Part shown: positions 352-36,602 of the stretch, piece by piece
Position numbering within the stretch: position 1 is the first letter of the stretch
Layout of the letters: each line of letters starts with the position of its first letter
Virus record (IMG/VR): IMGVR_UViG_3300021961_000038
Coordinates: 1 to 64,000 of that record
Origin: a virus
Direction: 5' to 3' (one strand)
DNA length: 64,000 nucleotides
Position numbers and translations under genes: made by a program
Notes under the pieces: generated by a model
What the model was told of the DNA's origin: nothing
Seen by the model: the letters and a program-made list of their open reading frames with translations, nothing else
Database searches by the model: none

Positions 352-780
352 TTAAGCAACAATAGGGTTGATAGACTCAAAATATGTGGCTTGAAAAATT
401 GCTTTTGTTTTGCTGTAATCTATACCGGAAACTGCTTTAGCAATCAGCGAAAGATTTATATCTACGTATGAATTGTTTACTACTGCTTGTACATCGAGTA
501 TATTTTGACCTAGATCTGCTTTCCCGTAAATTGTTAAATCTGCTTTATCAGGACCTGCTACAACAATGCACTTGATTATTTCTTTTTGTGTATTGCTGAA
601 TTCTGCAACAATAGTGTACTCGGCGGCCATAAATGTTCCCATATGCCATCGATCTAACCTTGTTGTTTTACCATCTAAGAGATAAATCCAAGGACCTCTG
701 TAGGAGAATTGAGCACCGTTTTTTAATACTACGGTGCCTTTTTCGCCTTTGTCAAAAACTTTATTAGCGTCGATCGTCAT
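352..780 (-). CDS. Hypothetical protein, probably virion structural (142 aa)
   Basis: Clean ORF in a late operon, TAAATA-N5-ATG upstream, beta-rich composition; no recognised motif. Confidence 0.6.
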   Translation of the reverse strand: MTIDANKVFDKGEKGTVVLKNGAQFSYRGPWIYLLDGKTTRLDRWHMGTFMAAEYTIVAEFSNTQKEIIKCIVVAGPDKADLTIYGKADLGQNILDVQAVVNNSYVDINLSLIAKAVSGIDYSKTKAIFQATYFESINPIVA

Positions 781-784
781 ACTA

Positions 785-2608
785 CTATTTAGTATTTGCG
801 ACTTTTACTAACTTTCCGTATTCTGGTAGATATAGATATTCGATTTGACTCTTTTTAAGTGTTTGTAATGCATCGTCTAGTGTTTCCACTAAAGGATCAC
901 CACCTAAGTTAAATGAAGTATTGAATATAATTGGACAATCTGTTTTTTCTTTAAACTTGCTAATCAAATTATAATAATGTTCATTTTGTTCTTTTGTAAC
1001 TGTTTGTATACGGCAGGTTCCATCAACGTGAATAATTGAAGGAATTTTTTCTTCAATACCTGGTTGACAGTTTACAGCATACATCATGCTTGGTGATTCT
1101 TCCATACCTCGTAGATCAAACCATTCATGTACATCTTCTTTAAGAATTGTACCAGCAAAAGGACGGAAATATTCTCTGTGTTTTACAGTGTTAACAAAAT
1201 CCTTACCGTCTTTTTCTCTTGGATCAAAAAGTATGCTTCTATTACCTAATGCTCTAGGACCATTTTCACAACGACCTTGGAACATAGCAACAATGTTTCT
1301 GTTAGTTAATAGTTCAACTACCATTTCGTTTGATGCTTCAAGTATTTCGCCGTTAACAGCATCCACTTTTTCTTGAAGTTCTTCTTCTGTGTAGCAATAT
1401 GCTGGACCTAAGTATAAATTGTCAGTCCATGTTTTGATAGTTTCGTCCTGAGAAATACTTCTATGAATAAACATAGCCGCACCCATAGCCGTTCCTGCAT
1501 CACTAGAAATCGGTTCAACATATAAATTAATATTGTTCTTTTTAAGTGTTTCTAAATAATGATAATTAGCAACACAGTTTAATGCATATCCTCCAGATAG
1601 CACAACATTTTTCTCTCCTGTCATTTCAACGGCTTTAAGAATTAATTTTAACACTTCTTCTTGTGTTTCTTGTTGTACCTTATATGCGAGGTCTCTTCTA
1701 TTTTTTAATTTAGTATAGTCTTTTTTCTCATCTCCGCCATTAATACCAAGTTCACCTTCTAGTTCATCATACATTAACGCATTGATAATAGAACTTTGAG
1801 GATAGTTTGGAATAATAACGTTTCTGTTTGTAAGAGTTACTTTACCATCTCGAACAAAAAGACTTGGGATTTTATCATTAGGCTCACCATATGGGAAAAG
1901 TCCCATAGTTTTTCCTGCTTCAATTGAACTGAAGCCACAGTATTCTGTTACTGCCTCATAGGCTTTTGTAATACCAGCGGTATCAGAAATAACGCATTCG
2001 TGTTTTCCATCTTCATTATACATAGAACTATCAAAGTTTGTATTAACAGCACCTACCATTGGACCACGTAAACCAATGTGTTTGTATAATGTTTTAAAGT
2101 TGCTAGGATATTCACAACTAAAAATAGTTTCAGTTTCCCAACCTGTTGTTTGTTGTCCACCAAAATTTAAAGGAATAAATGTTCCAGCACCATCAACAAT
2201 TACTGCAACTGCTTTATCAAATCCTGATCTATAAAAAGCACAAGCGGCGTGTAATTTATGATGCACAAAACTTAAATCAACAACCTGACTGTGTTGATAA
2301 GGATTCTCTGCTCTACTAATTAAGCCTAATTTACGTGCTAATCCAGTATACACATTGTCACCTGTGTAGTCAATTCTACCTGCTGATTCGTCTACACTTT
2401 GCGTATGTGCAATAACTAGATAATCAAGTTTATCTGTGTAATCTAAAATTTTAACCATTGAAGCAAATGGGCCACCATCATACTTTTGTCTTGATAGTCT
2501 TTCTTCTTCGATAGAGAATACAATTTCGCCGTCTTTTAGTAGACATACACCTGAGTTATGTCCTCTAGCAATACCGGCAATCCATACTGGTTTTTTATTT
2601 TCACTCAT
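785..2608 (-). CDS. O-carbamoyltransferase, NodU/CmcH/TobZ family
   Basis: Motifs GHNSG..L..DG.I....EEERLSRQK, HHKLHA, VDGAG, GKTMGL, SGGYALNCVAN, DAGTAMGAA, GPRALGNRSIL, KHREYFRPFA, HVDGTCRIQTV, NTSFNLGGDPLV (Kae1-like plus YrdC-like domains). Confidence 0.93.
   Translation of the reverse strand: MSENKKPVWIAGIARGHNSGVCLLKDGEIVFSIEEERLSRQKYDGGPFASMVKILDYTDKLDYLVIAHTQSVDESAGRIDYTGDNVYTGLARKLGLISRAENPYQHSQVVDLSFVHHKLHAACAFYRSGFDKAVAVIVDGAGTFIPLNFGGQQTTGWETETIFSCEYPSNFKTLYKHIGLRGPMVGAVNTNFDSSMYNEDGKHECVISDTAGITKAYEAVTEYCGFSSIEAGKTMGLFPYGEPNDKIPSLFVRDGKVTLTNRNVIIPNYPQSSIINALMYDELEGELGINGGDEKKDYTKLKNRRDLAYKVQQETQEEVLKLILKAVEMTGEKNVVLSGGYALNCVANYHYLETLKKNNINLYVEPISSDAGTAMGAAMFIHRSISQDETIKTWTDNLYLGPAYCYTEEELQEKVDAVNGEILEASNEMVVELLTNRNIVAMFQGRCENGPRALGNRSILFDPREKDGKDFVNTVKHREYFRPFAGTILKEDVHEWFDLRGMEESPSMMYAVNCQPGIEEKIPSIIHVDGTCRIQTVTKEQNEHYYNLISKFKEKTDCPIIFNTSFNLGGDPLVETLDDALQTLKKSQIEYLYLPEYGKLVKVANTK
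786..791 (-). promoter_or_regulatory. Late promoter box, TAAATA-N5-ATG type (representative; same geometry at 5642, 27563, 32192, 32460, 39294, 49720, 50193)
   Basis: T4-like late -10 core TAAATA lies exactly 5 nt before the start codon; a gp55 sigma factor is encoded in the window. Confidence 0.65.
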
Positions 2609-3792
2609 TATTTTATCTCCTGTTTAGGATTCATAAACGGAGGAAGTCCTTTTGCTCCTCCGGCAGGTCCTGTTATGCCAAATTGTGATGGCATTGCTGG
2701 AGCCATTGCCGCTGGTGTTTGTGGTTGCTGTGGATGTTGATGCATATGTCCGTGTTCGTGAACTACACCATGTACAGGACATACCTGTTGGTGTTGAGGT
2801 TCTTGTCCTTTTAATTTAGCAACTTTGACACTAGGATCACGTTGCTTAGGAAATTTCTTAGTCAGATCAACTGCCGCTTTAACTAAATCATCTTCCTGTG
2901 CATTGCTCATACGTGATAACCCATCATTCATTCTGTCAGTATGTTCATCTGGTGCAATTCTGATAGGTGCATATTCTCTTCCTTTTTCACCTGTATCAAT
3001 AATCTTGAAAGTTTTTTCATTTGGATAGGAAATATTGATAGGATATGTCGAAGAAACAACTGATACACACGGAACGTCCAGTGCATATGCAATGTGCTGA
3101 CCTACGCTATCACACCCGATAAAAATATCTGCGTCCTTAATTAAACCTGACCACTGTCTTAAACTAATACCTGCTGGTTGTGGAATAGGAACATCAAATT
3201 TTTCGCCACTAAAATCAATCTGCAACTCAGCCATGATCATTGTAGCATATCCTTTTTTCTGTAACTTTTGAATTATAGAAACTAGATTAGAGTATTCTAG
3301 ACTGCGTGATGTACTATCGTTAAATATTCCATCTCTAAATTCAATTCCACGACCAAAAGGTTGAATAATTGCAACCTTGTCCTTACCGGTCATTTGTTGC
3401 ACTTCGTTCATAGTAATAACACCATTAAGCATTTCGTCTTTGCTTAATTTAAGTGTAGGTTTTGGTAAATCTCTGGGTTCTTCTCTATTATTAAAAATAA
3501 TATCGAAGCACTGTGCCAAACTTGCTTTTTGATTGTAGTAATGCCAAACTCTATATGGTTCAGGACTTACACAATTTCTATCTTTAATTTTGTCTTGAAA
3601 CAAATTTTTGTGCCATACGTCGTATGCACGTTTATCTAAATCGTGATGACCTTTATAGAATTCAGTACCACCTTCACAAACAATGATAAAATCATCATCT
3701 GGATTTTCTTCTCTAAATTTTTCTAAACCCGGAATGGAAGTAAGGACTCTACCAGCACCGCCGTTTATAAAAAACGCTGTTGATCTTTTCAT
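2608..3792 (-). CDS. GT-B glycosyltransferase, GT9 (heptosyltransferase)-like, with His/Gln/Pro-rich C-terminal tail
   Basis: N-terminal GGAGRVLTSIP, IIQPFG, and LRQWSGLIKDADIFIGCDSVGQHIAYALDVPCV match the GT9 signature (A..FIG.DSG..H.A.A...P). The stop overlaps the carbamoyltransferase start (TAATG). Confidence 0.8.
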   Translation of the reverse strand: MKRSTAFFINGGAGRVLTSIPGLEKFREENPDDDFIIVCEGGTEFYKGHHDLDKRAYDVWHKNLFQDKIKDRNCVSPEPYRVWHYYNQKASLAQCFDIIFNNREEPRDLPKPTLKLSKDEMLNGVITMNEVQQMTGKDKVAIIQPFGRGIEFRDGIFNDSTSRSLEYSNLVSIIQKLQKKGYATMIMAELQIDFSGEKFDVPIPQPAGISLRQWSGLIKDADIFIGCDSVGQHIAYALDVPCVSVVSSTYPINISYPNEKTFKIIDTGEKGREYAPIRIAPDEHTDRMNDGLSRMSNAQEDDLVKAAVDLTKKFPKQRDPSVKVAKLKGQEPQHQQVCPVHGVVHEHGHMHQHPQQPQTPAAMAPAMPSQFGITGPAGGAKGLPPFMNPKQEIK

Positions 3793-3826
3793 TTTTTTCC
3801 TCTAATCTATATTTTTTGCAGTCTTT

Positions 3827-3864
3827 ATAATAGCATCAGATCACTTCTAATGCAAGAATATTTA
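3827..3864 (-). promoter_or_regulatory. Sigma70-type promoter (TTGCAT-N17-TATTAT with extended TG) plus late TAAATA box upstream of the GT/carbamoyltransferase pair
   Basis: Minus strand: TAAATA 3864-3859, TTGCAT 3855-3850, 17-nt spacer, TGcTATTAT 3835-3827. Confidence 0.55.
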
Positions 3865-3898
3865 ACTAACAAAACTAGATGAGGTTTAGATCTTGGTT

Positions 3899-4759
3899 TT
3901 ATGTATTTGTGGAAGTATCCGGAGCAACATTTGCCGCATTTGGATCTACTGGTTCTGGAGCGTTATCAACAGCAGTATCCTGGAAAGTTGCTAGTGTTTC
4001 CGCAGGCATAATAGGCATCTCTACCTGTAATTGTCCTGGAGGCGGATCATCTGGATTCATAACTGTCTGTGCTCTAGGGTCTTGTGGGAATGGAATCATC
4101 CATGGATCCCAAGTATCTCTTGGAAATTTAGTAGGAATTGATACTAAATCTTCTTTGAATGCTGTCATTTTAGCAATCATATCCGTGTTACCTTGTTCTG
4201 TATATGTTGCTATTGCGTCTGTTGCCTCTGAAACTAAACTTGCCGCCGCGACATCTAAATTTTCAAATGTCATATGCGGTCTTTTCCATGGAAAAGGCTT
4301 TTTCCATTCTTCTGCAACAAAATCGTACTGTACTTCACTTACTTCGTATGTGTGATCTGGTACAGGAATAGTTGCTCTAGAATAATAAACTGTTGTGTCT
4401 GAAGGATCAATGTCTGTTCTTGTAAATTCTGTTTGAGGATAGTCTGCTTGATCAACTTTCATCCAAAGAAGAGCACCTAATAATGGTTCTTTTCTAGCAT
4501 CTACTAGTATAGCCGCCGCATCATTACCACCTTGTTGGTGCCAACGCTCTGCTTGTTCAGGAGTACCATCATATGCTTCTTGATCATAGGACGGAATAAC
4601 ATAACCTGTTTCTCTGGTAACATAACACCAAAATTTTGCAGGACCTACATATGTAAAGTCAGCAGTAAGACCTAACTCATTTGTATCGTATAGATACTTG
4701 TCAGGCATATCATACGTAAAATCTACTTCAATATTTGGTACATTATTTGAACTTGCCAT
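3899..4759 (-). CDS. Hypothetical acidic protein, possible tail-fibre assembly/chaperone-like (286 aa)
   Basis: Directly follows the Cys-rich trio. C-terminal L.SIP.KFP....PW.IPFP.DP resembles phage fibre-assembly chaperone endings. AGGAG SD. Confidence 0.5.
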   Translation of the reverse strand: MASSNNVPNIEVDFTYDMPDKYLYDTNELGLTADFTYVGPAKFWCYVTRETGYVIPSYDQEAYDGTPEQAERWHQQGGNDAAAILVDARKEPLLGALLWMKVDQADYPQTEFTRTDIDPSDTTVYYSRATIPVPDHTYEVSEVQYDFVAEEWKKPFPWKRPHMTFENLDVAAASLVSEATDAIATYTEQGNTDMIAKMTAFKEDLVSIPTKFPRDTWDPWMIPFPQDPRAQTVMNPDDPPPGQLQVEMPIMPAETLATFQDTAVDNAPEPVDPNAANVAPDTSTNT

Positions 4760-4787
4760 ATTATCTTTTAAACTCCTATAACTCTAT

Positions 4788-5636
4788 TTACGTTTGATAC
4801 CATGTGATTCTGATCATTCCTGGAGCACCATATGATCCACAATGGCAGTGTCCTGACCATGTGTAGAATGTTACGCCACCAAATCCTGGTACGTATTGTG
4901 GTGAAAGTCTTGACCAACCAATATTGTTTGCCGCCGCACAGTTTACGTAAGTATCAAAGTGTCTACCACCTACACCTACACCAACTGTACCACCGCATTT
5001 ATTAACAAGTCCGCCTGGATATGGTAGATAGTGTTTATAACAGCAGTGATCACCGCATGATCTATTAACCCACCAACCACGCACACCGCAAATATTAATA
5101 TCACCACCGTAAGCACACGCAGTACCTGAGTTTTGTTGACATCCACAGCACCATGAACGACAGTTACAATAACCTGTTACATAACATCCATAACCTGGGA
5201 AGCAGTAAGAACATCCTTCAATACCACCATCAGCACAGAAGTTACTTAATCCTGTACCTTTAATGGAAGAACGACATCCTCTAAATCCGTTTCTACCGTT
5301 GGTACAACAAGCACCTTCACCCATACACATATCATAACAGTCGCCTGATGATACTGAAATAGTTCTACGTGCATATGCACCTGATCCACCTGGTGCACCA
5401 CCCATACAACAGCAGTTTACACCGCCACCGCCACCTGAGCCCCATGCTTCAAATGTAGCACGAACGGCATCGGTTGGAACAATAAAAGCAAAACAGCAAT
5501 ATTGTTGATAGTTACCAAATGATGGACAACTCCAACAAGATGATCTCCAAATTAATGTACAGCCTCCTGGTAAGTCTGTTACGCTCTCACCTGCTGGTAG
5601 TACTAAATCGTTTATGTATGATGATAGTTTTGCCAT
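4788..5636 (-). CDS. Cys/Gly-rich adhesin-like protein, paralogue 3 (31 Cys in 282 aa by hand count)
   Basis: FEAWGSGGGGG..CCC...PGGSGAY, SNFCADGG and C-terminal G.PG.IRITW are shared with the two neighbours; resembles glycine-rich phage fibre-tip domains. Confidence 0.7.
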   Translation of the reverse strand: MAKLSSYINDLVLPAGESVTDLPGGCTLIWRSSCWSCPSFGNYQQYCCFAFIVPTDAVRATFEAWGSGGGGGVNCCCMGGAPGGSGAYARRTISVSSGDCYDMCMGEGACCTNGRNGFRGCRSSIKGTGLSNFCADGGIEGCSYCFPGYGCYVTGYCNCRSWCCGCQQNSGTACAYGGDINICGVRGWWVNRSCGDHCCYKHYLPYPGGLVNKCGGTVGVGVGGRHFDTYVNCAAANNIGWSRLSPQYVPGFGGVTFYTWSGHCHCGSYGAPGMIRITWYQT

Positions 5637-5649
5637 ATTAATATTTACC

Positions 5650-6507
5650 TTAACAACAGTCGTTCCATGTTACTCTGACGAATCCAGCATTTCCTGGATA
5701 ACCATAACAGCATCCACCACCACATGATGTTGCTGACTGTCCACCAACACCAGGTGTTAAACCTGATTCACCTGTTGCCCATCCAATATCAAACACACAT
5801 CGTGCCCAGTCTGAGAAACAAGCGTCACCCATATTTCTTACATGAGAATGTCCGCCATTTTTGTTTACTAGACCACCTGGATAATGATACCATAATCCCC
5901 AATAGCATGGTCCACAGTTACATTGTGCCCATATAAATGAAGGTCTTCCATAAGTTCCTCCATCGGCACCGTAATACATTTTACAACATAAGCAACAGTA
6001 TTGTTCTGTATAATAATATCCGCAGTTGTTACCTTGACAGTAACCATATCCCCACATAATCCAACAACAAGTTTTACCTGGGTTTCCGCCTTCAACACAG
6101 AAATTACTTAATCCTGCACCTTCAATATAACCTTTACAACCTAAAATACCGCAACAACATGAAGCACAACAAGTTGGTGGTCCTGGATAAAATGCGTAAC
6201 AATCTCCTACAGCATAGTCGGCACCATTGTTGTGACCTTTTAAACATTTGTAAGCATATGCACCAGATCCTCCTGGAACACCTTGTTGACAACAACAAGC
6301 ACCGCCACCTGATCCGCCACCTGCCCAAACTTCAAATTTGGCACAGTTTGCACCATCTGGCATACACCAATATAGATAACAGTTACCTGCGTAGTCTGAG
6401 TTACAGTAACATTGACAGTGAGGGAAGAATACCACTTGACATCCCGGTTCTAACGGTCTAATGTCTGTTGGACTAACTGCTCCTAATAATGATTTTAAAT
6501 TTGCCAT
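5650..6507 (-). CDS. Cys/Gly-rich adhesin-like protein, paralogue 2 (37 Cys in 285 aa by hand count)
   Basis: FEVWAGGGSGGGACCCQQGVPGGSGAY, SNFCVEGG, G.AG.VRVTW; ends in CC. Confidence 0.7.
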   Translation of the reverse strand: MANLKSLLGAVSPTDIRPLEPGCQVVFFPHCQCYCNSDYAGNCYLYWCMPDGANCAKFEVWAGGGSGGGACCCQQGVPGGSGAYAYKCLKGHNNGADYAVGDCYAFYPGPPTCCASCCCGILGCKGYIEGAGLSNFCVEGGNPGKTCCWIMWGYGYCQGNNCGYYYTEQYCCLCCKMYYGADGGTYGRPSFIWAQCNCGPCYWGLWYHYPGGLVNKNGGHSHVRNMGDACFSDWARCVFDIGWATGESGLTPGVGGQSATSCGGGCCYGYPGNAGFVRVTWNDCC

Positions 6508-6515
6508 TTCTTCTC

Positions 6516-7367
6516 CTATGGATCCAATGTTATTCTTACTAAACCTGGGCCGCCTGGTCCACCGCAGTAACAGTTTCCGCCTAATGCCGAACCTGAAATA
6601 CCACCTTGACCTGGTGCTCTTTGGTGTGATCCACCACCACCGATTAAACCTTGTCCGCCTCTACAGCCGTCAAATCCGCCCGGCATATTGTAAGCACAAA
6701 ATCTATGCATATCCCATCTCATACCTTGCATTGATAAATGTCCTGGCAATGGCGTGTAGTGTTTATACCAACATGAGTTATTATTTTGACAGTGAGTTGC
6801 GATACCACCTAATCTACCTGGAACGCCCATATCACCGCCGAACCAACAAGCACAACAGTTTGGATATCTAGGATCTAAACAAACTCCACATCCAATACAG
6901 TTGAACATAAAGCAGAGTGAACAACCTGAGTTTCCACCTTCTGCACAAAAATTCGAGTACCAATAATTGTTACTAATCCAACTTTTACAACCTCTGTATC
7001 CACAAGCAAAAACTGGTGAACAACAAGAAGGTGGTCCAATACAAATTTGTAATTCTTGATTACAGTTTTGATAATTCTGTACACATTTTCTTACGTAAGC
7101 ACCTGAGCCGCCGTCAAATCCCCATTGGCAACAGCATACACCTGCGGCTCCACCGCCGCCGCCCCACATCTCAATGGTCATTTTGTTGACCGAAGGATCA
7201 GGATTGAAACAGTGTTCGTGTCTACATTGATCCGTGTTATGTGAAATACCACAGTGTTGAGTAAATGTCACTTGGCAGGTATAATATTTTCTGCAAGGAG
7301 CATTAGGCGATGTAGCATCAAACTCATCACTCGTTGCTCTATCTAATAAACTTTTTAAGTTAGCCAT
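6516..7367 (-). CDS. Cys/Gly-rich adhesin-like protein, paralogue 1 (30 Cys in 283 aa by hand count)
   Basis: IEMWGGGGGAAGVCCCQWG.DGGSGAY, SNFCAEGG, GGPGLVRIT; N-terminus MANLKSLL identical to paralogue 2. Confidence 0.7.
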   Translation of the reverse strand: MANLKSLLDRATSDEFDATSPNAPCRKYYTCQVTFTQHCGISHNTDQCRHEHCFNPDPSVNKMTIEMWGGGGGAAGVCCCQWGFDGGSGAYVRKCVQNYQNCNQELQICIGPPSCCSPVFACGYRGCKSWISNNYWYSNFCAEGGNSGCSLCFMFNCIGCGVCLDPRYPNCCACWFGGDMGVPGRLGGIATHCQNNNSCWYKHYTPLPGHLSMQGMRWDMHRFCAYNMPGGFDGCRGGQGLIGGGGSHQRAPGQGGISGSALGGNCYCGGPGGPGLVRITLDP

Positions 7368-7419
7368 TTACTTTATCCTTAATCCTCTTTTTTAATGTGT
7401 GCTAGTATTTAACTTAAAA

Positions 7420-7746
7420 TTAAATTAAAATCCAGCCGTAAGTTGCTCCAGAATACATTAATGTTACAGTAGCATTGTTCAAGTTAAGATCTAAATTTTC
7501 ATTTAAGTTTTGTATCTTAGAACCATTTCTTGCTAATGTTACATTGTATTGTCCGAAAGAACCTGTGACATCAATAATTTGGATAGTATCACCAGTGACT
7601 AACGAAGCGTTTGCAGGCAAAGTGACAGTAAAAGCACCACCGCTTGTATCAGCAAGAACTCTATCGTTCACTACCGCTTGGTAAGTACCGCTAATTTCAC
7701 GGATAACTGCACCGCTTGTTCCAGTTGTTGTAATATATCTTCCCAT
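7420..7746 (-). CDS. Small fibre adaptor protein with a T4 gp34 N-terminal-repeat-like domain
   Basis: DTSGGAFTVTLP...GDTIQIID..GSF...NVTLARNGSKI....NLDL......TLMY.....GW, the recurrent gp34-type repeat. Confidence 0.65.
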   Translation of the reverse strand: MGRYITTTGTSGAVIREISGTYQAVVNDRVLADTSGGAFTVTLPANASLVTGDTIQIIDVTGSFGQYNVTLARNGSKIQNLNENLDLNLNNATVTLMYSGATYGWILI

Positions 7747-7775
7747 TTGTTGTTCCTTATCTTATTGTTATTTAT

Positions 7776-8093
7776 CTATGCTAGTGTTTCAATGCCCATT
7801 ACAACACAACTCATTGCTGGGGCACTCGAATACGCTACAATCTTTTTTCCTGCGTCAAGCACAAGACCTGTTCTCTCCAACACACCTTTTGCTTGGATTT
7901 CAACGTCAAATTCAATCCATTCAGCATCTGTAGGTGTATCAGCGGCCGCTACTGCTAATCTTACAGCCGCCGCGTTATTTGAGCGGTTGCACATAGACAC
8001 AGTAACAACGGAATAGGTACTTGCAGGCACTGTATAAATCGTGGTATTACTACCTTGTGCCATACTTGCCGCTCCTAGTCTTCCTGTTGCCAT
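7776..8093 (-). CDS. Small virion protein (105 aa), member of a three-copy family here
   Basis: YTVP....V.VSMCNR...VRLA....WIEFDVEI....LER..LVLD.G.KI; similar to 21341-21670 and 25396-25746. Confidence 0.65.
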   Translation of the reverse strand: MATGRLGAASMAQGSNTTIYTVPASTYSVVTVSMCNRSNNAAAVRLAVAAADTPTDAEWIEFDVEIQAKGVLERTGLVLDAGKKIVAYSSAPAMSCVVMGIETLA

Positions 8094-8121: not shown

Positions 8122-11100
8122 TTATGATAATAACATCCTTTGTAACGCAACAATGTCTCCATCAACTCCGCCTAAGAAGTTCAATTTGGCTTTAACTTTG
8201 ATTTCAACACCGGTTGTAGTGTCAATTTGATCTTCTTTGATCTCAATAACACCTGCGGTCATTATATTTACGTTCAATTCGGAATTACCACCACCAATTT
8301 GAGCATTAATGAAAGTTCTAATTGCTCGTTGTGTCGGCACAACACTGTCCGAGTTAGCCGCAAATGTTCCATCTGTACTAAACTCAGTAATTACTGCACC
8401 TGTTCCACCAAGTTCAACTGAACCCAATGAAAGTTCATTTAGTCCTGCAATGTTAAATGCATCTGCATCCAACGTTGCAACACCAGTGGACTGTTCTACT
8501 GAGAACAAGTCACCAACTCTAAAGTTACCGTCTTGGTCTGTTGACGTAAAGAACACTCTACCACCACCATACTGAACAGTTTCTTTTGTTGCATCTGGAT
8601 CTACTAACGGAATTCCTGGATAGTTAGTATTAGTAAAGTTACCTGTACCAATATCTAAGAAATCGTGTCCTGTTAGTCGAACCTGTGAATATCTAATTCT
8701 TAATTCTACCGCATCACCATGCTCTGGTGCTTGGTTAACAGGAACATCAGGACTTAATTGTACTCTTGCTGTATAAGGTCCTACGCCTAGTAATTCTCTT
8801 ACAGTAACAAGTTTAAAGTAAGGATTATTAATTCCTTTTTCTGCTGGAACGTTTGCTAAACCGTTTGATATTACATCAATCATAATATCTAACAAGTATG
8901 TTACTTTAGAAATCGTTTCATTCTCGCCATCGTTGCCTGTAATTGTCTGTGTTGTTACCACAGGCGATTGTAAAGTTGAGTAAGATGTGTTTATTAAAAT
9001 GTAACTATTGATAATAGTTTTTAACTGTTCAATAGCCGCAACCGTTTGTGCTTGTTGACCTGCTACTTGTGAAGTAGCACCATCCCAATAACTTTTTGAT
9101 GCCGCAATACTTTGTAGGTTACCACCAAATTTAATATCGTGTGCAATAGCATCAACAATATATCCTGTGTCTCTTTCGCACTTGGATTGATTATATGAGA
9201 ATCCGTTCCATATACCAGTTCCTGCTGATATTTGTGCTTCGATCCAAGCAATAACTTCATCTTTTAAAAACTCTTTGTTAACAGTTAATAGATCATAAGT
9301 GTATGGATATGTTTCACTTGTAATACTATTAAATGTTACGTTTGAACCAGCCAATGGTGGTTCAGTTAATCCTTCAAGATATACGTTCGCTCCAGGTTGA
9401 TATTTGTCTGCATAACCATCACCTGAAACAGTAGCAGTAGCAGTTTCGTAACCAATACCTCTGTTTAACATTGTTGGTTGTGCTATTACACCGTTACCAA
9501 CTCTAACTTCAAATGGTGCTTCAATTGTGTTTGAAGGATCTGTAATTGTTAGTGTAGGAGTTGTAACGTATCCTGAACCAGGTTCAAGAATTTTCATTCT
9601 TGCAATTTTTCCTGTGGCAACTACCGCTCTTATAAGTGCTTGTGCACCTGTTAAAATTTTATTTTGATTTGTTGTTGATGTTTGAATTCTAAACCATTGT
9701 GGTCTGTTTGAAACAGATCCGCCAACCAACCCAGCAAACTCTGCCGGAGAAGCAATTCCTGTATTAGTTCTTTGTGTCCAATTAATACCATCTGGTGTTT
9801 GAGCACCTTCATTACCTGATGTAATAGTTGCAACATCAAACGTGATATCAGTACCTGTACCACCAATACTTGCCGCCGCAATAGTTAATGTCTCAGCCAC
9901 TTCGTAAAGTTTACCTGGATTTCTTACAGTAATTGTACAAGCACCTGATCCGTCAACATCGACATCAAATTCTGCATCAGCACCAATAACTGATCCCGTA
10001 GCACTTACACCTGTGTATGTACCAAGTGTTCTTAAAGCATCCGCGGCACCTACGTTGTTAATTGTTTTAATTTGTCCGTGTTTTGTTTGTGCCCAAACAA
10101 ATGTTCCCATTTGATAGTTAATAAATCCTTCATGGTGTAGATATGCTGGATATGTTGCTTCTGTCCAAACAGTTCCGTTTAATGAATAATAGTATTTGTC
10201 ACCTCTATCTAAAGTAACAATATATCTTCCATTACCCCATGCAATATCAAAATATTGTGCATCAGTTACAGTTGGAATTGGTAATCCAAATCCGTTCCAT
10301 GTAATACCGTCTGACGATTTAGCCGCTTGTCCGTCTGTTGCAATAGCAACAAATTCGTTTCTTCCCCAAATAACTTTTAACCAATTTCCTGTTGTGCTTG
10401 GTAATGCTGTTTGTGTCCAAGTAGCACCGCTATCTGTTGAGTATGCTCCCACAGTAGAATCTTCAGTAATGGCAACCCATGTGTCGTTGATCTTGCTATA
10501 TGCACTTGCAGTCCAAGTACCGTTTGGAGCAGTTGTTTGTGTCCAAGAAACACCGTTGTCTGCTGAGAAACAAGCAGTCGAAGTGCCTTTACCAAACACC
10601 GCCCAGTTGCCTCCGCCATCACCAACTAGTGCATTCCAGTTTAGTCCTGAAGGTAAATTTCCTCCAGCGGCAAACGTGCTACCGTCATCTGATCTTATTG
10701 TTGATTGAACGTTTTGTCCAACCGCTATAATTCTTCCACCTGCAATACCCCAGTTTTGTCTTCCATATTGTAATGCCGCTCCAACACCTTGTTGTGAGTC
10801 TGCATATCCTGGATGTGGTAATGTAATTCTAGGTTCAATTTCGTACTTTGTAGTTCCATCGATTAATGAAGCAATAGCAGTTCCTGGAATTAAATGGTCA
10901 AAGCCTGCTGTATCGTCGGATTCCTTAAACACAGTTGCTGATTTTGATCCAGCACCGTATGTTCCAATGTAACCATACTGACCAACACCAAGACCGCTGG
11001 TAATTACAATTCTCATTCCGTTGTATTGACCAGTGTTTGCAGTATCAGTGTTCGAAATTACAATCGATGTACTATCACCTGTTTGTGCTGTATTTCCTGC

Positions 11101-14100
11101 TTGTGAATATTCAGCACCACCGAAGTCTCCTTCGCCGTCTGCATCAACATCGTTATCCAACATACGAATATCAAAAATACCACTGTCTCTAAATTCATCT
11201 GCAAGAGCAATAGCACCTGTTCCGTCACCAGCAAATTCAAAAGTTGCATTTGTATAATGAACTCCTGCATTTGAATATTCAACTCTTAAAATGTTTGCTT
11301 GGTTTGTAATAACATTATCAATTGTTGCTTCTCTATTTCTATTATTAACTGTACCTGTAATAGGAACTTCAGTAGGATCAACACCTTCAGCAACAGTACC
11401 AAATGTACCGTATGATGAGTTACCGTTTGTAGCACGAATCTTACCACCGTTCTCTGCTAGGTAACCAATGTGACCGTAGTATGAGAACACGGAAACAAGT
11501 TCTGTTCTACCTAGGTTAGTACACCATACACCAATACCATCTGATAGTACCTGTGTAAAGTCGTTGGCAACGATCGAATCATTTCCGCCGTCGTGTAAAT
11601 TACCATCAATTTTACAACCAACACATCCTGTACCAAATGTTGTTACGTTTTGTACATATGGTGAACGTGTTTGAATCCAAACTCTTGGATCAGTTGGACC
11701 CCAACCTGGATCAAGTGATGTGAATGAACCTGCTGTTGGTCTTCTAGTTCCATAATTGTTAGGAGCACTTAAAGTTCCTGTTAGTCCTTGTACTGTACAA
11801 TTTCTTAAACCTGTTCCATCTCTTAGATAGAACATATCTTCAGTTAATGAACCGTTAACAGCGTTTGCATAATATCTTGCATTATAGATTGTTCTATAAT
11901 TTCCGCCGTGTTTTAATTCCCAAATAAATCCTTCAATATATTTTCTAACATCACGCTGACATTTTGCTGTGTTGTATGTGTACGCAGGATATGTTGCTGT
12001 AATGTAAGCAGTTACTTCTTCTGCCAAGAAATCTGTATTGTGTTTTAGCATTTCAATAGCGGCATACACGTTGTCATCATTCGATGGAACTGTGCTTGAA
12101 GCATAAGGATTAATTACTGGTGGACTACTGTCTTGTGCAGTATTATTCACATAGTATTCAACATAATTAATTGCGTCTTGAATTCTTGCTTGTACAAAAG
12201 TACCTTCTGCAGAAGTACCTGCAAAGTTTAGTTTACTTTGCTCCATCTGTGTTTTTGTGTTAGAAGGTGTTTTTATTATTCCTGTACCTTGAATTACTGT
12301 ACTAATAATAGATTTTAAATGTTCATATCCAGCCAATGAATAGTTTGTGTCACTTGCTTGAGTATACATTTCAGCAGTTGCAGGACGAATGTTAGTTGAA
12401 CGTAACTCGTCTCCAACTACCGCAGTAAATTTTGGAACAATGATCGGTAATACTTCATAGTATCTTCCTGTTTTTACAAAAATAGTTTTATTAACAACTA
12501 TTTCTGCAGGAATATTAACTGTTGATGAATCTTCAATAGCAACAGCATCTGAAACAATATCAATTAATGATTCAATTCTTTCTTGAGCACCTGCTTCTTC
12601 AACCCAGTTACCATTTTTATACTGAGGTACTGGAGTTGCTACGCTGTTTAATGTTGCATAGTTTTGTGCAGGATCTAAATTTGTTAAAATTGCATCAGCA
12701 AGAGTTTTAACATAATCCATTGCGTTTGCAACGGCAGTATTTGCACCAACAAAGTCATCAAAATATTCTAATGCTAACGCTCTAGTTTCAGTGTTTCCAC
12801 CTTTACCTAAATCAAGTGCTACTCTATCTACTAACCAACCAATTCGTGATTTCATATCTGCTTTTGAAACAGGATATGTAAATCCAACAAATGGTGCAAC
12901 AGAGTTAGTTGTTTGATAATCAATATATTCAACAACCTGTTCTTGAATAAAGTGTCTATTGTGTTCTAATAATTGTCTTGCATTATTGTTTAATACACCC
13001 CACTCAATTGCTTCTGTGGCATATCTAATAGATGCAAATGGTCTATCAACAGTAGCACCCCATTGTGGGAATGTTCCGTCCTGACCTGATGGACCAACAT
13101 AATACACATGATCTGTTTTACCAAAAACTGACCATTCTGGCATATTACTTGAATTAACAACAAGTACATCACCTTCGTTTCCGATAGGTAATCGTGTTGG
13201 TGCTGATCCTGAATAGTAAAGTAAATCACCGTCTGTGGTTAATGCACTTTGCTCATTTCCGCCTGCAATAATTTTATAATAGTTACCAGCAACATCTAAG
13301 TCTGGTCTTCTACCACCAACTGATTGATTTGAAATGTGTGCTTGAACAACAATATAAGAGTTTACACCGTAGTAAACAATGTCACCTAAATCATATGAGG
13401 TAACGTTTGTCCAATCACCTTGCCATTCAAAACCTTGGTTAAGTCTTTCCCAGTAAGTTGTGTTAGGTGGTTTGTAAGCAGTGTCGGCATGATCTTTGAT
13501 ACACAAATAAGTGTAACCGCCAACTCTTACCACATCACCTACATAATAATCTTGTGTGGATGAGTCATCACCCCAATCGCCTCTTAGGTTGAATCCTTTT
13601 AGATATAAATCCCAATCACTGGTATTTGAATAAGGAGCCTTACCTAAATTATTAGTTGTTGCAATATATGAATAACCACCATAAGAAACAATATCACCTG
13701 GCTGGTATTGTGTTTGAATATTCCATGAATCTTCAAATTCTAAACCTGGAACAAATTTTTCCCAGTTTACTTCGTCAGCGGCAAGTGAAGTAGTTGAAGT
13801 ATGATGAGTTATACAAATCCAAATGTTTGCTCCATACTTAACAATATCATTTACACGATATCTTGTTCCTGATGTCCAATCATTTCTATATAAAACACCT
13901 TTATGAAAATACTGCCATTTGGCTTGATCTGCTTCTAGACCTTCGCTTGTTGTTCCTGACAAGTGACCTGTGATACAAACATAAAGTTGTCCACCGTATC
14001 TAACAACATCATTTGGTTTGTATCTAGTTTGTTCGTCCCAAGCATTTTTCCAATCAAATCCGTTTGAATAAATGTCCCACTTGGCTAAATCTGCTTCTAG

Positions 14101-14580
14101 TCCGTCAATGTCTGTCGCAACTGTTGTGCTTGAAGTATGATATGTGTTACATAGATAAATGTTTCCACCATACTTAACTAAGTCATTAACTTTATATCTT
14201 GTGTTGACTGTCCAGTCACCTTTCCAGTCTGTATTTTCTGTGTAAAGATCCCAGTCACCTTGGTTCTGTTCTAAACCTAGTGTTGCTGTTCCGGCTGATG
14301 TGTGACCATTATTTGCAACATAAAGTAGTCCTCCGTATTTTACTACGTCGCCAATTTTATAATATGTGCTGACTGTCCAGTTACCTGCCCAGTTTTGTCC
14401 ATCGGACATAACATTCCAGTACGCACTATCTAAATAGAAATCCGCTCCGGCAGTATGTGCCTGAACACAGATGTAAACCTGACCACCATATCTAATGATG
14501 TCGTCCTTAACATAGGCTTTTGCGGTTACCCACTCACCTTGCCATACAAATTTAATTCTACCTAGTTTAAATTCAGCCAT
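8122..14580 (-). CDS. Large tail fibre/receptor-binding protein A (2,152 aa)
   Basis: About 8 N-terminal W.G.W....Y...D.V.YGG..Y.C...H repeats (CBM5/12/ChiC-like); central pectin-lyase-like beta-helix (SPYVQNVTTFG...DG...GGNDSIVANDFTQVLSDGIG); S.D.G..W Asp-box/BNR-like repeats; C-terminal RYSQVRLTGHDFLDIGTG...GGRVFFTSTDQDGNFRVG block. Confidence 0.8.
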   Translation of the reverse strand: MAEFKLGRIKFVWQGEWVTAKAYVKDDIIRYGGQVYICVQAHTAGADFYLDSAYWNVMSDGQNWAGNWTVSTYYKIGDVVKYGGLLYVANNGHTSAGTATLGLEQNQGDWDLYTENTDWKGDWTVNTRYKVNDLVKYGGNIYLCNTYHTSSTTVATDIDGLEADLAKWDIYSNGFDWKNAWDEQTRYKPNDVVRYGGQLYVCITGHLSGTTSEGLEADQAKWQYFHKGVLYRNDWTSGTRYRVNDIVKYGANIWICITHHTSTTSLAADEVNWEKFVPGLEFEDSWNIQTQYQPGDIVSYGGYSYIATTNNLGKAPYSNTSDWDLYLKGFNLRGDWGDDSSTQDYYVGDVVRVGGYTYLCIKDHADTAYKPPNTTYWERLNQGFEWQGDWTNVTSYDLGDIVYYGVNSYIVVQAHISNQSVGGRRPDLDVAGNYYKIIAGGNEQSALTTDGDLLYYSGSAPTRLPIGNEGDVLVVNSSNMPEWSVFGKTDHVYYVGPSGQDGTFPQWGATVDRPFASIRYATEAIEWGVLNNNARQLLEHNRHFIQEQVVEYIDYQTTNSVAPFVGFTYPVSKADMKSRIGWLVDRVALDLGKGGNTETRALALEYFDDFVGANTAVANAMDYVKTLADAILTNLDPAQNYATLNSVATPVPQYKNGNWVEEAGAQERIESLIDIVSDAVAIEDSSTVNIPAEIVVNKTIFVKTGRYYEVLPIIVPKFTAVVGDELRSTNIRPATAEMYTQASDTNYSLAGYEHLKSIISTVIQGTGIIKTPSNTKTQMEQSKLNFAGTSAEGTFVQARIQDAINYVEYYVNNTAQDSSPPVINPYASSTVPSNDDNVYAAIEMLKHNTDFLAEEVTAYITATYPAYTYNTAKCQRDVRKYIEGFIWELKHGGNYRTIYNARYYANAVNGSLTEDMFYLRDGTGLRNCTVQGLTGTLSAPNNYGTRRPTAGSFTSLDPGWGPTDPRVWIQTRSPYVQNVTTFGTGCVGCKIDGNLHDGGNDSIVANDFTQVLSDGIGVWCTNLGRTELVSVFSYYGHIGYLAENGGKIRATNGNSSYGTFGTVAEGVDPTEVPITGTVNNRNREATIDNVITNQANILRVEYSNAGVHYTNATFEFAGDGTGAIALADEFRDSGIFDIRMLDNDVDADGEGDFGGAEYSQAGNTAQTGDSTSIVISNTDTANTGQYNGMRIVITSGLGVGQYGYIGTYGAGSKSATVFKESDDTAGFDHLIPGTAIASLIDGTTKYEIEPRITLPHPGYADSQQGVGAALQYGRQNWGIAGGRIIAVGQNVQSTIRSDDGSTFAAGGNLPSGLNWNALVGDGGGNWAVFGKGTSTACFSADNGVSWTQTTAPNGTWTASAYSKINDTWVAITEDSTVGAYSTDSGATWTQTALPSTTGNWLKVIWGRNEFVAIATDGQAAKSSDGITWNGFGLPIPTVTDAQYFDIAWGNGRYIVTLDRGDKYYYSLNGTVWTEATYPAYLHHEGFINYQMGTFVWAQTKHGQIKTINNVGAADALRTLGTYTGVSATGSVIGADAEFDVDVDGSGACTITVRNPGKLYEVAETLTIAAASIGGTGTDITFDVATITSGNEGAQTPDGINWTQRTNTGIASPAEFAGLVGGSVSNRPQWFRIQTSTTNQNKILTGAQALIRAVVATGKIARMKILEPGSGYVTTPTLTITDPSNTIEAPFEVRVGNGVIAQPTMLNRGIGYETATATVSGDGYADKYQPGANVYLEGLTEPPLAGSNVTFNSITSETYPYTYDLLTVNKEFLKDEVIAWIEAQISAGTGIWNGFSYNQSKCERDTGYIVDAIAHDIKFGGNLQSIAASKSYWDGATSQVAGQQAQTVAAIEQLKTIINSYILINTSYSTLQSPVVTTQTITGNDGENETISKVTYLLDIMIDVISNGLANVPAEKGINNPYFKLVTVRELLGVGPYTARVQLSPDVPVNQAPEHGDAVELRIRYSQVRLTGHDFLDIGTGNFTNTNYPGIPLVDPDATKETVQYGGGRVFFTSTDQDGNFRVGDLFSVEQSTGVATLDADAFNIAGLNELSLGSVELGGTGAVITEFSTDGTFAANSDSVVPTQRAIRTFINAQIGGGNSELNVNIMTAGVIEIKEDQIDTTTGVEIKVKAKLNFLGGVDGDIVALQRMLLS

Positions 14581-14628: not shown

Positions 14629-17600
14629 TTATGTGCCGCCTCCCGTTTCGTCGGTTCCGCCCATATCGTCCGGTGCCGGAAAGTCGGTTCCTGCGGCAAA
14701 AAATGCCATGGCCGCTACTTGTCCGCCAACACCGCCCTGTGCTGTTAATTTTGTTAATACATTGATTGCTCTAGTTGGATCTTCTTCAAGTGTTGTCATA
14801 GTAATTGTTTGGAAATTAATTTGAATAACACCTGCAACCAACCCGTTAACGTTAATGCTTGTACCACCACCTGTAATTCTGTTTGCAACATAAGCCGCGA
14901 TTGCTTTTTGTGTCGGGATAATTCTATCTGAGTTAGCAGTAAACAGTGGATCAATTGAGAATTCACTAATTACAGCACCAGTACCGCCTAAAGTAACACC
15001 ACCTAAACTTAGTTCTGTTAGTCCTTGTAGTTCAAATTGATCTGCGTTAAGTGTAACAGTACCTCTAGCCTGTTCAACTTCAAATAATTCTCCAACACGG
15101 AAGTTACCATCTTGGTCAGTTGAAGCGTAGAACACTCGTCCACCATCTGATTGTTGTACTTCATTAAATGGTTTTGGTGAATTATCTGCACCTTCAACGA
15201 AACCTTCAACATATCTTTGAGGATATGCTGATTCTCCAAAGTTACCTGTACCGATATCTAGGAAATCGTGGAATGTTAAACGTACCTGTGAGTATCTCTG
15301 TCTAATAGAAATTGCCGCACCGTGTTCTGGTGATTCTGCTCTTCCTAATTTAGGAGATATATTAATTTTTGCTGTTAGGCTTCCTGTATTACCTGCTACG
15401 TTTTCAACGCTGGTAACTTTATATGTTAATCCGTCAATACCTGCGATGTCTAAGTTATCACCTGGTCCTGGTAAACGAGACAATGCTTGTACGTTAACGC
15501 TACCACCTAATTGGAAAATGTCTGCATAACCGTCACCTGTTACTGTTGCTGTCGCACTTCTAAATCTTGTACCTCTACTAATAAATGATGGTTGAGGTAA
15601 TACACCGTTGGCTAATCTCAAATTCCATCTAGGTTGAGATGTAGATTGAGGATCAGTTATCGTCATAACAGCATTACCTGTTTCTGTTATAGATGTTGCA
15701 TTACCCATTCCAGCGGTAGATGTTGAATGATAATAAAAAGTACTAGGTGCATTAAATTGGACTTCAATTTCGATATATCTATCTGATGCAGTTGCAAAAT
15801 TATTAATAAATGCATTTCTAGTTACAACGCTTCCGTCGATGTAGTATAATAATCCTTGTTCATAATAGTTGCCACCATCTCCGATACCTTCGGCACTGTC
15901 TGCAAAGAAGAACGGATGTGTAGTTGTTGTTGAATCATCTTGTGGGAAATCAGTTAAAGAACTATCATTTAAATCAAACTTGTATGTAATACCTCTTGAC
16001 ATATCTAGATGTGGACGTTCACTACCGTCAATAAAGAATACATTTTGTGAATCTCCTGCATTTCTTTCAACGGTAACAGTTTTTACAACGTATAAAGTTT
16101 CTTCTGCACCACTGTAACCTGATCCTGGATCTAATAATGTAAACGAACCAACCCTGTTGTTTGAAACTTCAATAAATGCAAATGCTGTTTTACCTTGTCT
16201 TACTATTTCAACAATGTTTGATCCTGATGATTGTAAAGGATTACCTGAAGATAACAACAAGAATTTTCCAATATAGTTTGGAGCACCGAAACAAACGTGT
16301 GTCCATTTTCTAGAACCAGTTGTTGTTTGAGCAGTCCAAGTAATTGCGTCTTCAGATGTTGCTAATTCTGTGCTATTTTCTCTCACAGCAAGGAATACAC
16401 CTTGACCGTACCCTAATTTCCAGTTTCCTGGAGAAGGCAGTGCACCTGTTACTTCAACCCAAGTATCTTTTCCGTTTCTTACATTGTAGTATACAGTATC
16501 AGTTCCTGGTTGCACACCAACAAATCTATTGTTACCAAATGTTAATTGATCTAAGTTTGAAATATTTGTGGTTGTAAAGTTTTCACTCCATGTAGTTGCA
16601 CTAGGTGATTTAAACCAAATTCTATTTGCTGTTGAATCAAAATCATTTGTGGTAACAATAAAGTGTCCTTGACCATATGCTATACCACGAACAATTATTC
16701 CGCCGCCTAACACAACACCTGGTGATTCATATTCAATCCAGTTAATTCCGTCTGTTGATTGCCACCATACAGATCCGTCAGTTGTCATAACGACAAAGTA
16801 TCCACTACCATATTCAATAAATCTACTTGATACCAATGAAGAGTCTTCAGCAAGTTCTCTTACTAGCCAGTTTTCTCCATCTGTTGACACAGCAACAATA
16901 CCTTCATCAGCAACAGCAACAAACCTTCCGTTACCGTATACTATGTCTCTCCAACTCCATGAACCTGACGGTACATTAGGAGGAAAGTTAGGGAATGTTC
17001 CTTGAGTCCAAGTTACACCATCTAAACTTGTTGCATATGAATCTGTGTTTGGTTTACCAAATTCACTTTGTGCAATAGCAACAAATCTTCCGTTACCGTA
17101 TACACAGTTTGACCAGTCAATTGGTACAGGAAGATTAGCAGTTGTTTTGCTGAATGGTGGTTTACTAAACTCTACCAACGGTTGAATTTGATAGTATGCT
17201 GTATCATCAATAACAGGTTCTATAGGAGTACCTGAAATTAAATGATCCCATCCTGGTTGACCATTTGATAATTTATAAACGTTTGCAATTTTGGTTGAAG
17301 GGTCATATGTGTCAATAATACCGTATTGACCAACACCAGTACCACCAATAATTCTAATTAGTTTTCCGTTGTAACCTCCGGTTGAATCTTCTTGAGTATC
17401 AGTTAAAGAAAGTGTCAACGATGTAGTTGTTCCTCTTTGACCTAGACCTTGAATAACCTCGAATCCAAATCCACCCGCGGTTGATGAATCACCTGGATCC
17501 ATAAGTCTAACTTCTTTAATTGCACCATCTCTAAATTCTTCATATTCTGTAACAAGTCCGCTACCTGTACCTGAAAATGATTTAACTGATGCTGATGTAT

Positions 17601-36572: not shown

Positions 36573-36602
36573 TATAAATATCTTTATACATTATTATTTA
36601 TG
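36573..36602. promoter_or_regulatory. Face-to-face pair of late promoters
   Basis: TATAAATA on + at 36573-36580 (for 36614) and CATAAATA on - at 36602-36595 (for 36545). Confidence 0.65.

Follow-up and report, generated by a model that had tools for sequence, protein, structure and literature searches.

A conserved block in T4-like marine cyanophages links cysteine-rich tail-fibre tips to a GT9-fold protein and a carbamoyltransferase

Gene content of the block

The subject of this study is a block of nine tightly packed minus-strand genes at positions 352-8093 of a 64-kb stretch of viral DNA (hereafter, the window), which is the first part of the 113-kb IMG/VR virus contig IMGVR_UViG_3300021961_000038. 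The contig is estimated to represent about one third of a genome, and its source is an uncultured T4-like marine cyanophage. The block encodes two small fibre modules, three paralogous cysteine-rich proteins, a probable assembly chaperone, a protein similar to glycosyltransferases (GT) of family GT9 (for brevity, the transferase), a carbamoyltransferase of the NodU/TobZ type, and a 142-aa protein. A preliminary description of the window had delimited a contiguous minus-strand gene run at 785-7746. This run is present, and a recount of the Cys residues in the three cysteine-rich proteins again gave 30, 37, and 31. The core genes stand, but the limits had to be moved, as the full conserved block also takes in the genes at 7776-8093 and 352-780. 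Since the window begins at the contig end, any sugar genes downstream of the block are cut off. The genes and promoter-like boxes, in the direction of transcription, are as follows.

7776-8093, minus strand: s105, a 105-aa small fibre-module protein that opens the conserved block (phrog_11338, 'tail fiber protein', E 1.9e-9)
7769-7774, minus strand: TAAATA late-type box, 23 nt upstream of the 108-aa gene
7420-7746, minus strand: s108, a 108-aa fibre-end or adaptor module (PHROG matches to tail-fibre proteins)
7406-7411, minus strand: TAAATA late-type box (GTTAAATA), 39 nt upstream of the first cysteine-rich gene
6516-7367, minus strand: cysteine-rich TNF-like/glycine-rich fibre-tip paralogue 1, 283 aa, 30 Cys, 17% Gly (phrog_4205)
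5650-6507, minus strand: cysteine-rich fibre-tip paralogue 2, 285 aa, 37 Cys, C-terminal CC (structural model, match to Pam3 gp24)
4788-5636, minus strand: cysteine-rich fibre-tip paralogue 3, 282 aa, 31 Cys (phrog_4205, paralogy)
3899-4759, minus strand: acidic 286-aa protein with an isoelectric point (pI) of 4.1, probable tail-fibre assembly chaperone (phrog_9740; relatives match PF16778)
3859-3864, minus strand: TAAATA late-type box (GTTAAATA), 67 nt upstream of the transferase gene, within a 106-nt gap
2608-3792, minus strand: GT9-fold heptosyltransferase-like protein, 394 aa (structural model, fold search, donor motif)
785-2608, minus strand: NodU/CmcH/TobZ-type O-carbamoyltransferase, 607 aa (PF16861 and PF02543)
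352-780, minus strand: 142-aa protein encoded after the carbamoyltransferase in the lineage of the window (Pfam and PHROG searches without match)

The stop codon of the transferase gene overlaps the start codon of the carbamoyltransferase gene (TAATG), in agreement with the translational coupling noted earlier. The functional labels first given to these products, namely adhesin, adaptor, chaperone, GT9-like transferase, and NodU/TobZ carbamoyltransferase, hold by PHROG, Pfam, and fold matches.

Linkage across viral genomes

The linkage of the cysteine-rich genes, the transferase, and the carbamoyltransferase is near absolute. The search of IMG/VR with the cysteine-rich family gave 79 loci, and the order s105-s108-Cys(2-4)-chaperone-transferase-carbamoyltransferase is found in nearly all of those with enough flank. 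The transferase has at least 583 relatives in the same database, and linkage was scored in the best 79 new loci. The carbamoyltransferase is present in all loci having enough downstream flank (76 of 76), and cysteine-rich genes were labelled by BLAST in 60 of the 64 loci with upstream flank. The four misses proved to be two divergent cysteine-rich proteins, with 42 and 43 Cys, and two loci of inverted layout truncated at the contig end, so that after inspection cysteine-rich genes were counted in all 64. The full gene set was found again in a distant branch reached by profile search. Block order is kept across approximately 170 viral contigs, and cohesion survives the inversion of the two halves of the block relative to each other (loci L135, L153, and L162). 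Among 50,697 phage records, the transferase and the cysteine-rich family occur in the same cyanophages, that is, P-SSM2, P-SSM5, S-SSM7, S-SSM6a, S-CAM1, S-CAM3, and Sf-FS3. Co-occurrence of the cysteine-rich family with GT9 and carbamoyltransferase genes, which had been set beforehand as a test of the preliminary description, is thus very strong, and the similar cassettes it had suspected in marine T4-like phages exist in cyanophage isolates including P-SSM2, S-SSM7, and S-CAM1.

The same families in the same order make up the lipopolysaccharide (LPS) gene cassette of cyanomyoviruses (P-SSM2 PSSM2_302-313, S-SSM7 SSSM7_114-130, S-CAM1, and S-CAM3; PMC3037559), and the window adds an uncultured member to it. 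In the papers on this cassette (Sullivan et al. 2010, PMC3037559), the enzymes are listed as LPS or hypothetical genes and the cysteine-rich genes as hypothetical, with no connection drawn between them. The block is directly followed in P-SSM2, S-SSM7, S-CAM1, and S-CAM3, and also in many IMG/VR contigs, by ADP-heptose genes encoding a nucleotidyltransferase, a PfkB kinase, an isomerase, and an epimerase. The presence of this pathway next to the block in relatives names heptose as the likely sugar, and from these adjacent genes we infer ADP-heptose as the donor of the transferase. In contrast to the P-SSM2-type cassette, the window lineage has at this place the 142-aa gene, followed by a 348-aa gene and then by a giant virion protein. 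The 142-aa protein, which has no Pfam or PHROG family match, directly follows the carbamoyltransferase in 23 related loci, and its domain forms the N-terminus of 336-521-aa proteins in some related contigs.

Additional genes are inserted in the block in several lineages. P4H-like 2-oxoglutarate-Fe(II) oxygenase genes were found inside the block in several of them, and one relative (L163:6272-7984) has a HAD phosphatase and a radical S-adenosylmethionine (SAM)/SPASM enzyme between the chaperone and the transferase. In the same locus two proteins with 43 and 40 Cys adjoin, and two carbon-nitrogen hydrolase genes come after the carbamoyltransferase. In many relatives the transferase and carbamoyltransferase genes are separated by a conserved gene of 275-310 aa (for example, L053:12775-13635, L028:13636-14505, and L088:8990-9826); its product has no Pfam or NCBIfam match and begins with F-G-C-S, a motif that resembles one of SGNH hydrolases. 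The annotation 'cysteine dioxygenase' in some relatives was considered as a sign of cysteine chemistry and rejected, as the gene is a generic small cupin.

Cysteine-rich fibre-tip proteins

The three cysteine-rich proteins contain 10.6-13.0% Cys, compared to 0.95% in all open reading frames of the window of at least 150 aa, and 17-19% Gly. They are paralogues with pairwise identity of 33-34%, and all belong to phrog_4205, a PHROG family with no assigned function. The AlphaFold (AF2) model of paralogue 2, built on 56 homologues, has a predicted local distance difference test score (pLDDT) of 76.8 and a predicted template modelling score of 0.80. Its best structural matches are the tail fibre gp24 of cyanophage Pam3 (7ypx; Z 15.7 over 190 residues, root-mean-square deviation 3.3), the tail-tip protein of mycobacteriophage Bxb1 (9d93; Z 13.2), and the TNF-like/glycine-rich (TG) domain of ALK (Z 9.0), all further matches having Z of 3.8 or less. 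The Pfam family PF21722 (Gly_rich_2) is matched by five of the seven tested homologues (29.9-40.8 bits; cut-off 24.3) and has no match in the three window proteins, even at E 10. Queried by sequence, the PDB yielded nothing of use for the cysteine-rich profile, the transferase, or the profile of the transferase, and fold searches alone worked.

The Pam3 protein gp24 forms a trimeric fibre that binds the receptor and is related to the adhesin gp38 of S16 (PMC9942802, PMC9608196), so the match supports the label 'adhesin' given to the cysteine-rich proteins before. The likeness to Pam3 gp24/gp25 (7ypx, 7yfw; PMC9608196, PMC9942802) includes the TNF-like/glycine-rich fold and a Tfa-type chaperone gene directly downstream, and Pam3 uses disulfides in the baseplate and in fibre attachment. 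However, gp24 of Pam3 occurs in single copy and forms a homotrimer, its N-terminal helical shaft is long, and it is not cysteine-rich, whereas the window has three paralogues of 11-13% Cys with a short N-terminus, accompanied by a dedicated enzyme pair.

In the alignment of 265 family members, seven columns have Cys in at least 90% of sequences and 12 more in 50-90%, which points to a cysteine scaffold, beyond mere composition. The C-termini are variable, and the terminal Cys is not conserved in the family. Covariation of Cys columns in the same alignment was rejected as a signal of disulfide partners: it is dominated by clade signatures, columns 46, 120, 156, 198, and 241 shifting jointly, and is therefore uninformative on disulfide pairs. 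Parity of the Cys counts (58% even) also carries no information on disulfides. The family is large, its profile finding 1,034 clusters at 50% identity in public data; nearly all of the top 146 new representatives are cysteine-rich (median 8.4% Cys), and a search for close relatives of the least cysteine-rich one gave no match.

In a quick maximum-likelihood tree, paralogue 1 falls in a clade composed exclusively of position-1 proteins, paralogue 2 in a clade of 11 position-2 proteins (support 98), and paralogue 3 clusters exclusively with position-3 proteins. Such position-specific orthologues are seen in the window lineage and in the S-CAM1/S-CAM3 lineage, whereas the paralogues of S-SSM7 and P-SSM2 cluster by genome instead, and other lineages have one, two, or four copies. 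Position-specific orthology means that the triplication in this lineage is old and that all three copies have been retained. Three old paralogues fit one mixed trimer, the heterotrimer raised in the preliminary description, and three distinct tips equally well.

Fibre modules and chaperone

The position of s105 is kept in most related loci, and the s105 module is found inside fibre proteins of approximately 380 aa in loci of the S-CAM1 type. The s108 protein matches fibre PHROGs, including phrog_972 ('tail fiber protein proximal subunit', E 1.6e-8). In S-SSM7 and four related contigs, about 90 s108-like residues form the extreme C-terminus of the long fibre encoded just upstream of the cysteine-rich genes (for instance, residues 1199-1284 of a 1289-aa fibre). 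From this fusion we argue that s108 is the fibre end that bears the tips.

The acidic protein of the window has no match to PF16778 (Phage_tail_APC), which is matched by 13 of its 38 aligned relatives (best E 1e-10), and an Atlas search returned this same family as a lead. In Pam3, the chaperone gp25 adjoins the fibre gp24 (PMC9608196), and the acidic protein gene has the same position relative to the cysteine-rich genes. By this evidence the protein is a probable tail-fibre assembly chaperone of the Tfa type.

GT9-fold transferase

The 394-aa protein matches PF01075 (Glyco_transf_9) with 23.6 bits against a cut-off of 22, across 47 residues, and 27 of the 48 members of its family match this domain. 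The AF2 model (pLDDT 84) has the two-Rossmann GT-B fold, and its structural matches are 3tov (Z 24.2), WaaF (22.1), TibC (20.1), and WaaC (19.8), with other GT-B families at 12.3 or below. GT9-fold subunits of the plant NDH-PSI complex are also among the top matches. The donor motif G-C-D-S-x-G-Q-H is invariant in the 48 relatives and aligns to the WaaC motif around Asp261; its invariant residues D228, S229, G231, and H233 fit the pattern D-S/T-G-x-x-H. About 30 other positions are invariant as well, including Glu40 and Glu78, which could serve as an alternative base. The catalytic base of TibC is Asp110 (PMC4358343), and the corresponding Asp13 of WaaC is aligned by hhalign to Arg15, invariant in all 48 members; the offset of the structural alignment agrees.

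Two comparisons set the protein apart from the GT9 enzymes of known function. First, with the LPS enzymes WaaC and WaaF (2gt1, 2h1h, 1psw) it shares the fold, the D-S/T-G-x-x-H donor motif, and the pairing of a heptosyltransferase with heptose synthesis and a carbamoyltransferase, the counterpart of the last being the carbamoyltransferase of the Pseudomonas core. However, its acceptor domain is neutral (median pI 6.3, net charge -1), in contrast to WaaC (pI 10.0, +8) and WaaF (pI 9.4, +5), whose basic domains suit the anionic acceptor Kdo-lipid A, it has Arg in place of Asp13, its setting is a phage fibre block, and its scores are 15-25 bits against cut-offs of 135-467. The NCBIfam models of LPS heptosyltransferases I, II, and III (TIGR02193, TIGR02195, TIGR02201) score 14.7-25.3 bits against cut-offs of 134.6-185.3. 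Second, TibC and AAH, acting on the adhesins TibA and AIDA-I (PMC4358343), offer the likeness of a GT9-like GT-B enzyme that, in the cytoplasm, could transfer heptose from ADP-heptose to an adhesin. The fold of the phage protein begins at residue 1-5, the part of TibC aligned to it being residues 92-395 (Z 20.1, as above), but the TibC-type N-terminal beta-barrel, beta-hairpin thumb, and four-Cys iron finger are absent, the protein having six Cys and no CxxC pair, and Arg replaces Asp110, which places it outside that family. The neutral acceptor domain, Arg15, the lack of TibC features, and the low LPS scores together define a phage-specific branch of the GT9 fold. The protein is therefore neither an LPS heptosyltransferase nor a bacterial autotransporter heptosyltransferase, and the lipid A-core is unlikely to be its acceptor. 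N4-like Vibrio phages (L085:6995-7732, L170:5998-6732) have shortened homologues of approximately 245 aa retaining both conserved motifs. Their genes lie between tail genes, immediately upstream of one that encodes a large tail protein, and are not adjoined by sugar or LPS genes.

Residues 334-394 of the transferase (2608-2790) form a disordered tail rich in His, Gln, and Pro, with the stretch C-P-V-H-G-V-V-H-E-H-G-H-M-H-Q-H; it may be a metal binder or a docking tail. The C-terminal tails of the relatives are likewise disordered and differ in sequence.

Carbamoyltransferase

The 607-aa protein contains both the Kae1-like N-terminal domain and the YrdC-like C-terminal domain, with Pfam scores of 99 bits for PF02543 (cut-off 24) and 199.9 bits for PF16861 (cut-off 27). 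Its solved relatives, 7xb6, NovN, GdmN, and TobZ (E 8e-59 to 4e-42), are all O-carbamoyltransferases. In comparison with TobZ, NovN, and GdmN (3ven, 9s2t, 7vyj), both domains are shared, and the alignment spans approximately 380 residues and shows the HxxxH and Asp motifs, whereas the window enzyme is phage-encoded and translationally coupled to a GT9-like gene. With 130.9 bits against a cut-off of 1000 for the NodU equivalog NF041651, it is a member of the NodU/CmcH/TobZ family and not NodU itself. Matches to the HypF architecture are below threshold (18-21 bits) and limited to the shared Kae1-like subdomain, and the extra domains of HypF are lacking.

Late-type promoter boxes

TAAATA is the core of the T4-type late promoter. 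It has 37 copies in the window, 19 of which lie in the 7% of intergenic sequence, each oriented to the downstream gene, and it looks like the late-promoter core of this phage. TAAATA boxes precede the giant fibre genes, and the extended form GTTAAATA found in the block is also present upstream of the gene for the 2110-aa fibre. The full T4 late promoter TATAAATA was considered and set aside, as it has one copy in the window (36573-36580) and CTAAATA is not enriched, whereas the shorter TAAATA is. Scans of the window for sigma-70 promoters and terminators gave results at or below chance. In the closest relative, virion genes lie on both sides of the block.

Proposed function and alternative explanations

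The phage may well sugar-coat its own tail fibres. In full, we tentatively read the block, with a confidence somewhat short of even, as a distal receptor-binding tail-fibre module joined as one inherited unit to a sugar-tailoring operon, the virion fibre being decorated. Late in infection and in the cytoplasm, the transferase would move heptose from ADP-heptose onto a fibre protein of the virion, with the adjacent cysteine-rich tips as the prime acceptor candidates. The carbamoyltransferase would next O-carbamoylate a hydroxyl of that heptose with carbamoyl phosphate and ATP, as in TobZ. The Cys residues would not be attachment sites and may instead serve as a structural scaffold stiffening the glycine-rich lattice, either through disulfides formed in oxic seawater or through metal sites. 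The three paralogues would hold distinct, non-redundant roles, as parts of a mixed trimer or as three kinds of tip.

The preliminary description had suggested that the phage builds carbamoylated glycans on its fibre tips or modifies their Cys. Its virion-directed part remains the best reading, given the late-type box, the structural genes at the flanks, the non-basic acceptor domain, and the location of the N4-like homologues between tail genes, whereas no observation singles out Cys as the modified residue. The oxygenase and radical-SAM insertions, tailoring genes of kinds that modify proteins, together with the tail-gene settings in the N4-like Vibrio phages, favour a virion target over LPS. 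Heptosylation of proteins by GT9-like enzymes is known for TibC and AAH (PMC4358343).

Several observations weigh against decoration of the fibre. The Pfam GT9 match is marginal and confined to the donor motif, and the catalytic-base Asp (Asp13 in WaaC, Asp110 in TibC) is replaced by an invariant Arg, so that the reaction could be a different one or the protein could lack enzymatic activity. Two exceptions to the linkage were found. A 66-kb record (L075:9851-13599) has three cysteine-rich tips (32-38 Cys) and a chaperone-like gene, and neither the transferase nor the carbamoyltransferase is present anywhere in that record. P-RSM4 (L168:6992-9766) has a related carbamoyltransferase (41% identical) with no GT9-like gene; it is convergent to a gene for a 387-aa fibre protein (33% Gly, 2 Cys) and lies beside three paralogues of approximately 290 aa. 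No ADP-heptose genes stand beside the block in the lineage of the window, and an isomerase-like gene is the sole one in the 113-kb record. In our literature search, neither a sugar on a cyanophage fibre nor the virion proteome of any carrier phage was found. Finally, linkage to fibre genes would be expected, too, if the enzymes altered the receptor bound by these fibres.

The last point leads to the strongest alternative, in which the enzymes act on the host envelope: carbamoyl-heptose would be added to LPS or another surface glycan of the infected cell, which could hide the receptor and so prevent superinfection, or could keep progeny from adhering to debris, and the enzymes would stay by the fibre-tip genes because an adhesin and the enzymes modifying its receptor must match. 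Linkage alone would fit such a role as well, since adhesin and receptor-modifying genes would also co-evolve. We regard it as unlikely, though still to be reckoned with. GT9 is the family of LPS heptosyltransferases, its solved structures are the top fold matches, and ADP-heptose genes are classic LPS core genes; moreover, 7-O-carbamoyl-heptose occurs in the LPS inner core of Pseudomonas. In published work these genes are counted among those for host-surface modification (PMC3037559, PMC9602691, PMC12801897). Yet the acceptor domain is non-basic, unlike those of WaaC and WaaF, the transferase scores far below all LPS heptosyltransferase cut-offs, and the Asp that deprotonates the acceptor 3-deoxy-D-manno-octulosonic acid (Kdo) in WaaC is absent. 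Further, a late-type promoter box precedes the enzyme pair, structural genes lie at either side, and the N4-like homologues are situated between tail genes. The LPS of marine Synechococcus is not known to contain heptose or Kdo, so that the usual acceptor would be missing.

It is rather improbable that the GT9-like protein is no transferase at all, being instead a sugar-nucleotide-binding or structural factor of tip assembly, with the carbamoyltransferase acting on another molecule. A non-enzymatic precedent exists in the GT9-fold subunit of plant NDH, which is among the best fold matches; Arg occupies the catalytic-base position in 48 of the 48 aligned members, and the Vibrio phage homologues are shorter (approximately 245 aa). 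Against this, the donor motif and about 30 other positions are invariant, the invariant Glu40 and Glu78 could act as a base, and the co-inherited ADP-heptose pathway and sugar-type carbamoyltransferase would have no purpose if no sugar were transferred.

Even less credit is given to modification of the Cys residues themselves, by an S-linked sugar or by S-carbamoylation of the kind that HypF performs on HypE. One form of it, equally doubtful, would have carbamoyl-heptose placed on the thiols of the cysteine-rich tips, with Arg replacing the Asp base in order to stabilise the thiolate; if true, it would be without precedent both as S-linked heptosylation and as an enzyme-made glycan on an adhesin of a T4-like phage. 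The transferase is found solely with cysteine-rich forms of the fibre-tip family, the loss of the catalytic base would matter less for a thiolate nucleophile, and the radical-SAM/SPASM enzyme inside the block of one relative belongs to a class often acting on Cys. However, S-glycosylation as in glycocins, one precedent cited earlier, is not borne out: glycocin S-glycosyltransferases (SunS/ThuS type, GT2) have the GT-A fold, as do the known S-glycosyltransferases, whereas the transferase is GT-B/GT9. Carbamoylation of Cys as by HypF, the other precedent, is likewise not supported, since the HypF matches are below threshold and cover the Kae1-like subdomain only, the extra domains are lacking, all solved relatives of the carbamoyltransferase target hydroxyls, and the terminal Cys is not conserved among the varying C-termini. 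In addition, the 15-19 Cys columns conserved among the 265 sequences fit a fold scaffold, and that the transferase and the carbamoyltransferase are strictly paired and coupled fits two steps on one sugar.

Hypermodification of phage DNA, for instance to carbamoylated or glycosylated hydroxymethylated bases, can be practically dismissed: a phage NodU-like enzyme making 5-carbamoyloxymethylcytosine is known, but its class co-occurs with thymidylate-synthase-like hydroxymethylases, and in contigs lacking the DNA modification the carbamoyltransferases adjoined glycosyltransferase genes (PMC8670742), while no PF00303 match was found in the 113-kb record (about one third of the genome) and the neighbours here are fibre and heptose genes.

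Implications

T4-like cyanophages belong to the most abundant marine viruses, and which Prochlorococcus and Synechococcus strains they kill is determined by their fibre tips. If the fibres are decorated as proposed, host range would hinge on a post-translational step in addition to fibre sequence, the auxiliary 'LPS' genes listed since 2005 would gain a different function, and protein heptosylation, known so far from bacterial autotransporters, would reach viruses. The gene set has been known since the sequencing of P-SSM2 and listed as cyanophage 'LPS genes' since 2005-2010, and our literature search found no discussion of the tight, nearly exclusive tie of the gene set to cysteine-rich fibre tips. 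Also new here are the Arg at the catalytic-base position and the neutral acceptor domain of the transferase, the fusion evidence for the 108-aa module, and the position-specific orthology of the three paralogues. As P-SSM2, S-SSM7, S-CAM1, and S-CAM3 are cultured isolates, the question is directly testable.

Additional observations

The giant fibres encoded at 8122-14580 (2152 aa) and 14629-20961 (2110 aa) contain three and five copies, respectively, of the motif [DE]DS[ST], compared to about 0.15 expected, a count reached by none of 300 shuffles. The motif is lineage-specific, being absent from the cysteine-rich proteins and from the fibres of S-CAM1, S-CAM3, and P-SSM2. Its absence from the fibres of these carrier phages rules it out as a sequon tracking the transferase.

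The isomerase-like gene mentioned above lies outside the window (G000:C1:102312-102623; L167:6298-6636). Its 112-aa product has no Pfam match and is far shorter than a normal GmhA. The gene adjoins a DNA polymerase gene, and its product is 52% identical to the P-SSM2 protein annotated as 'phosphoheptose isomerase'.

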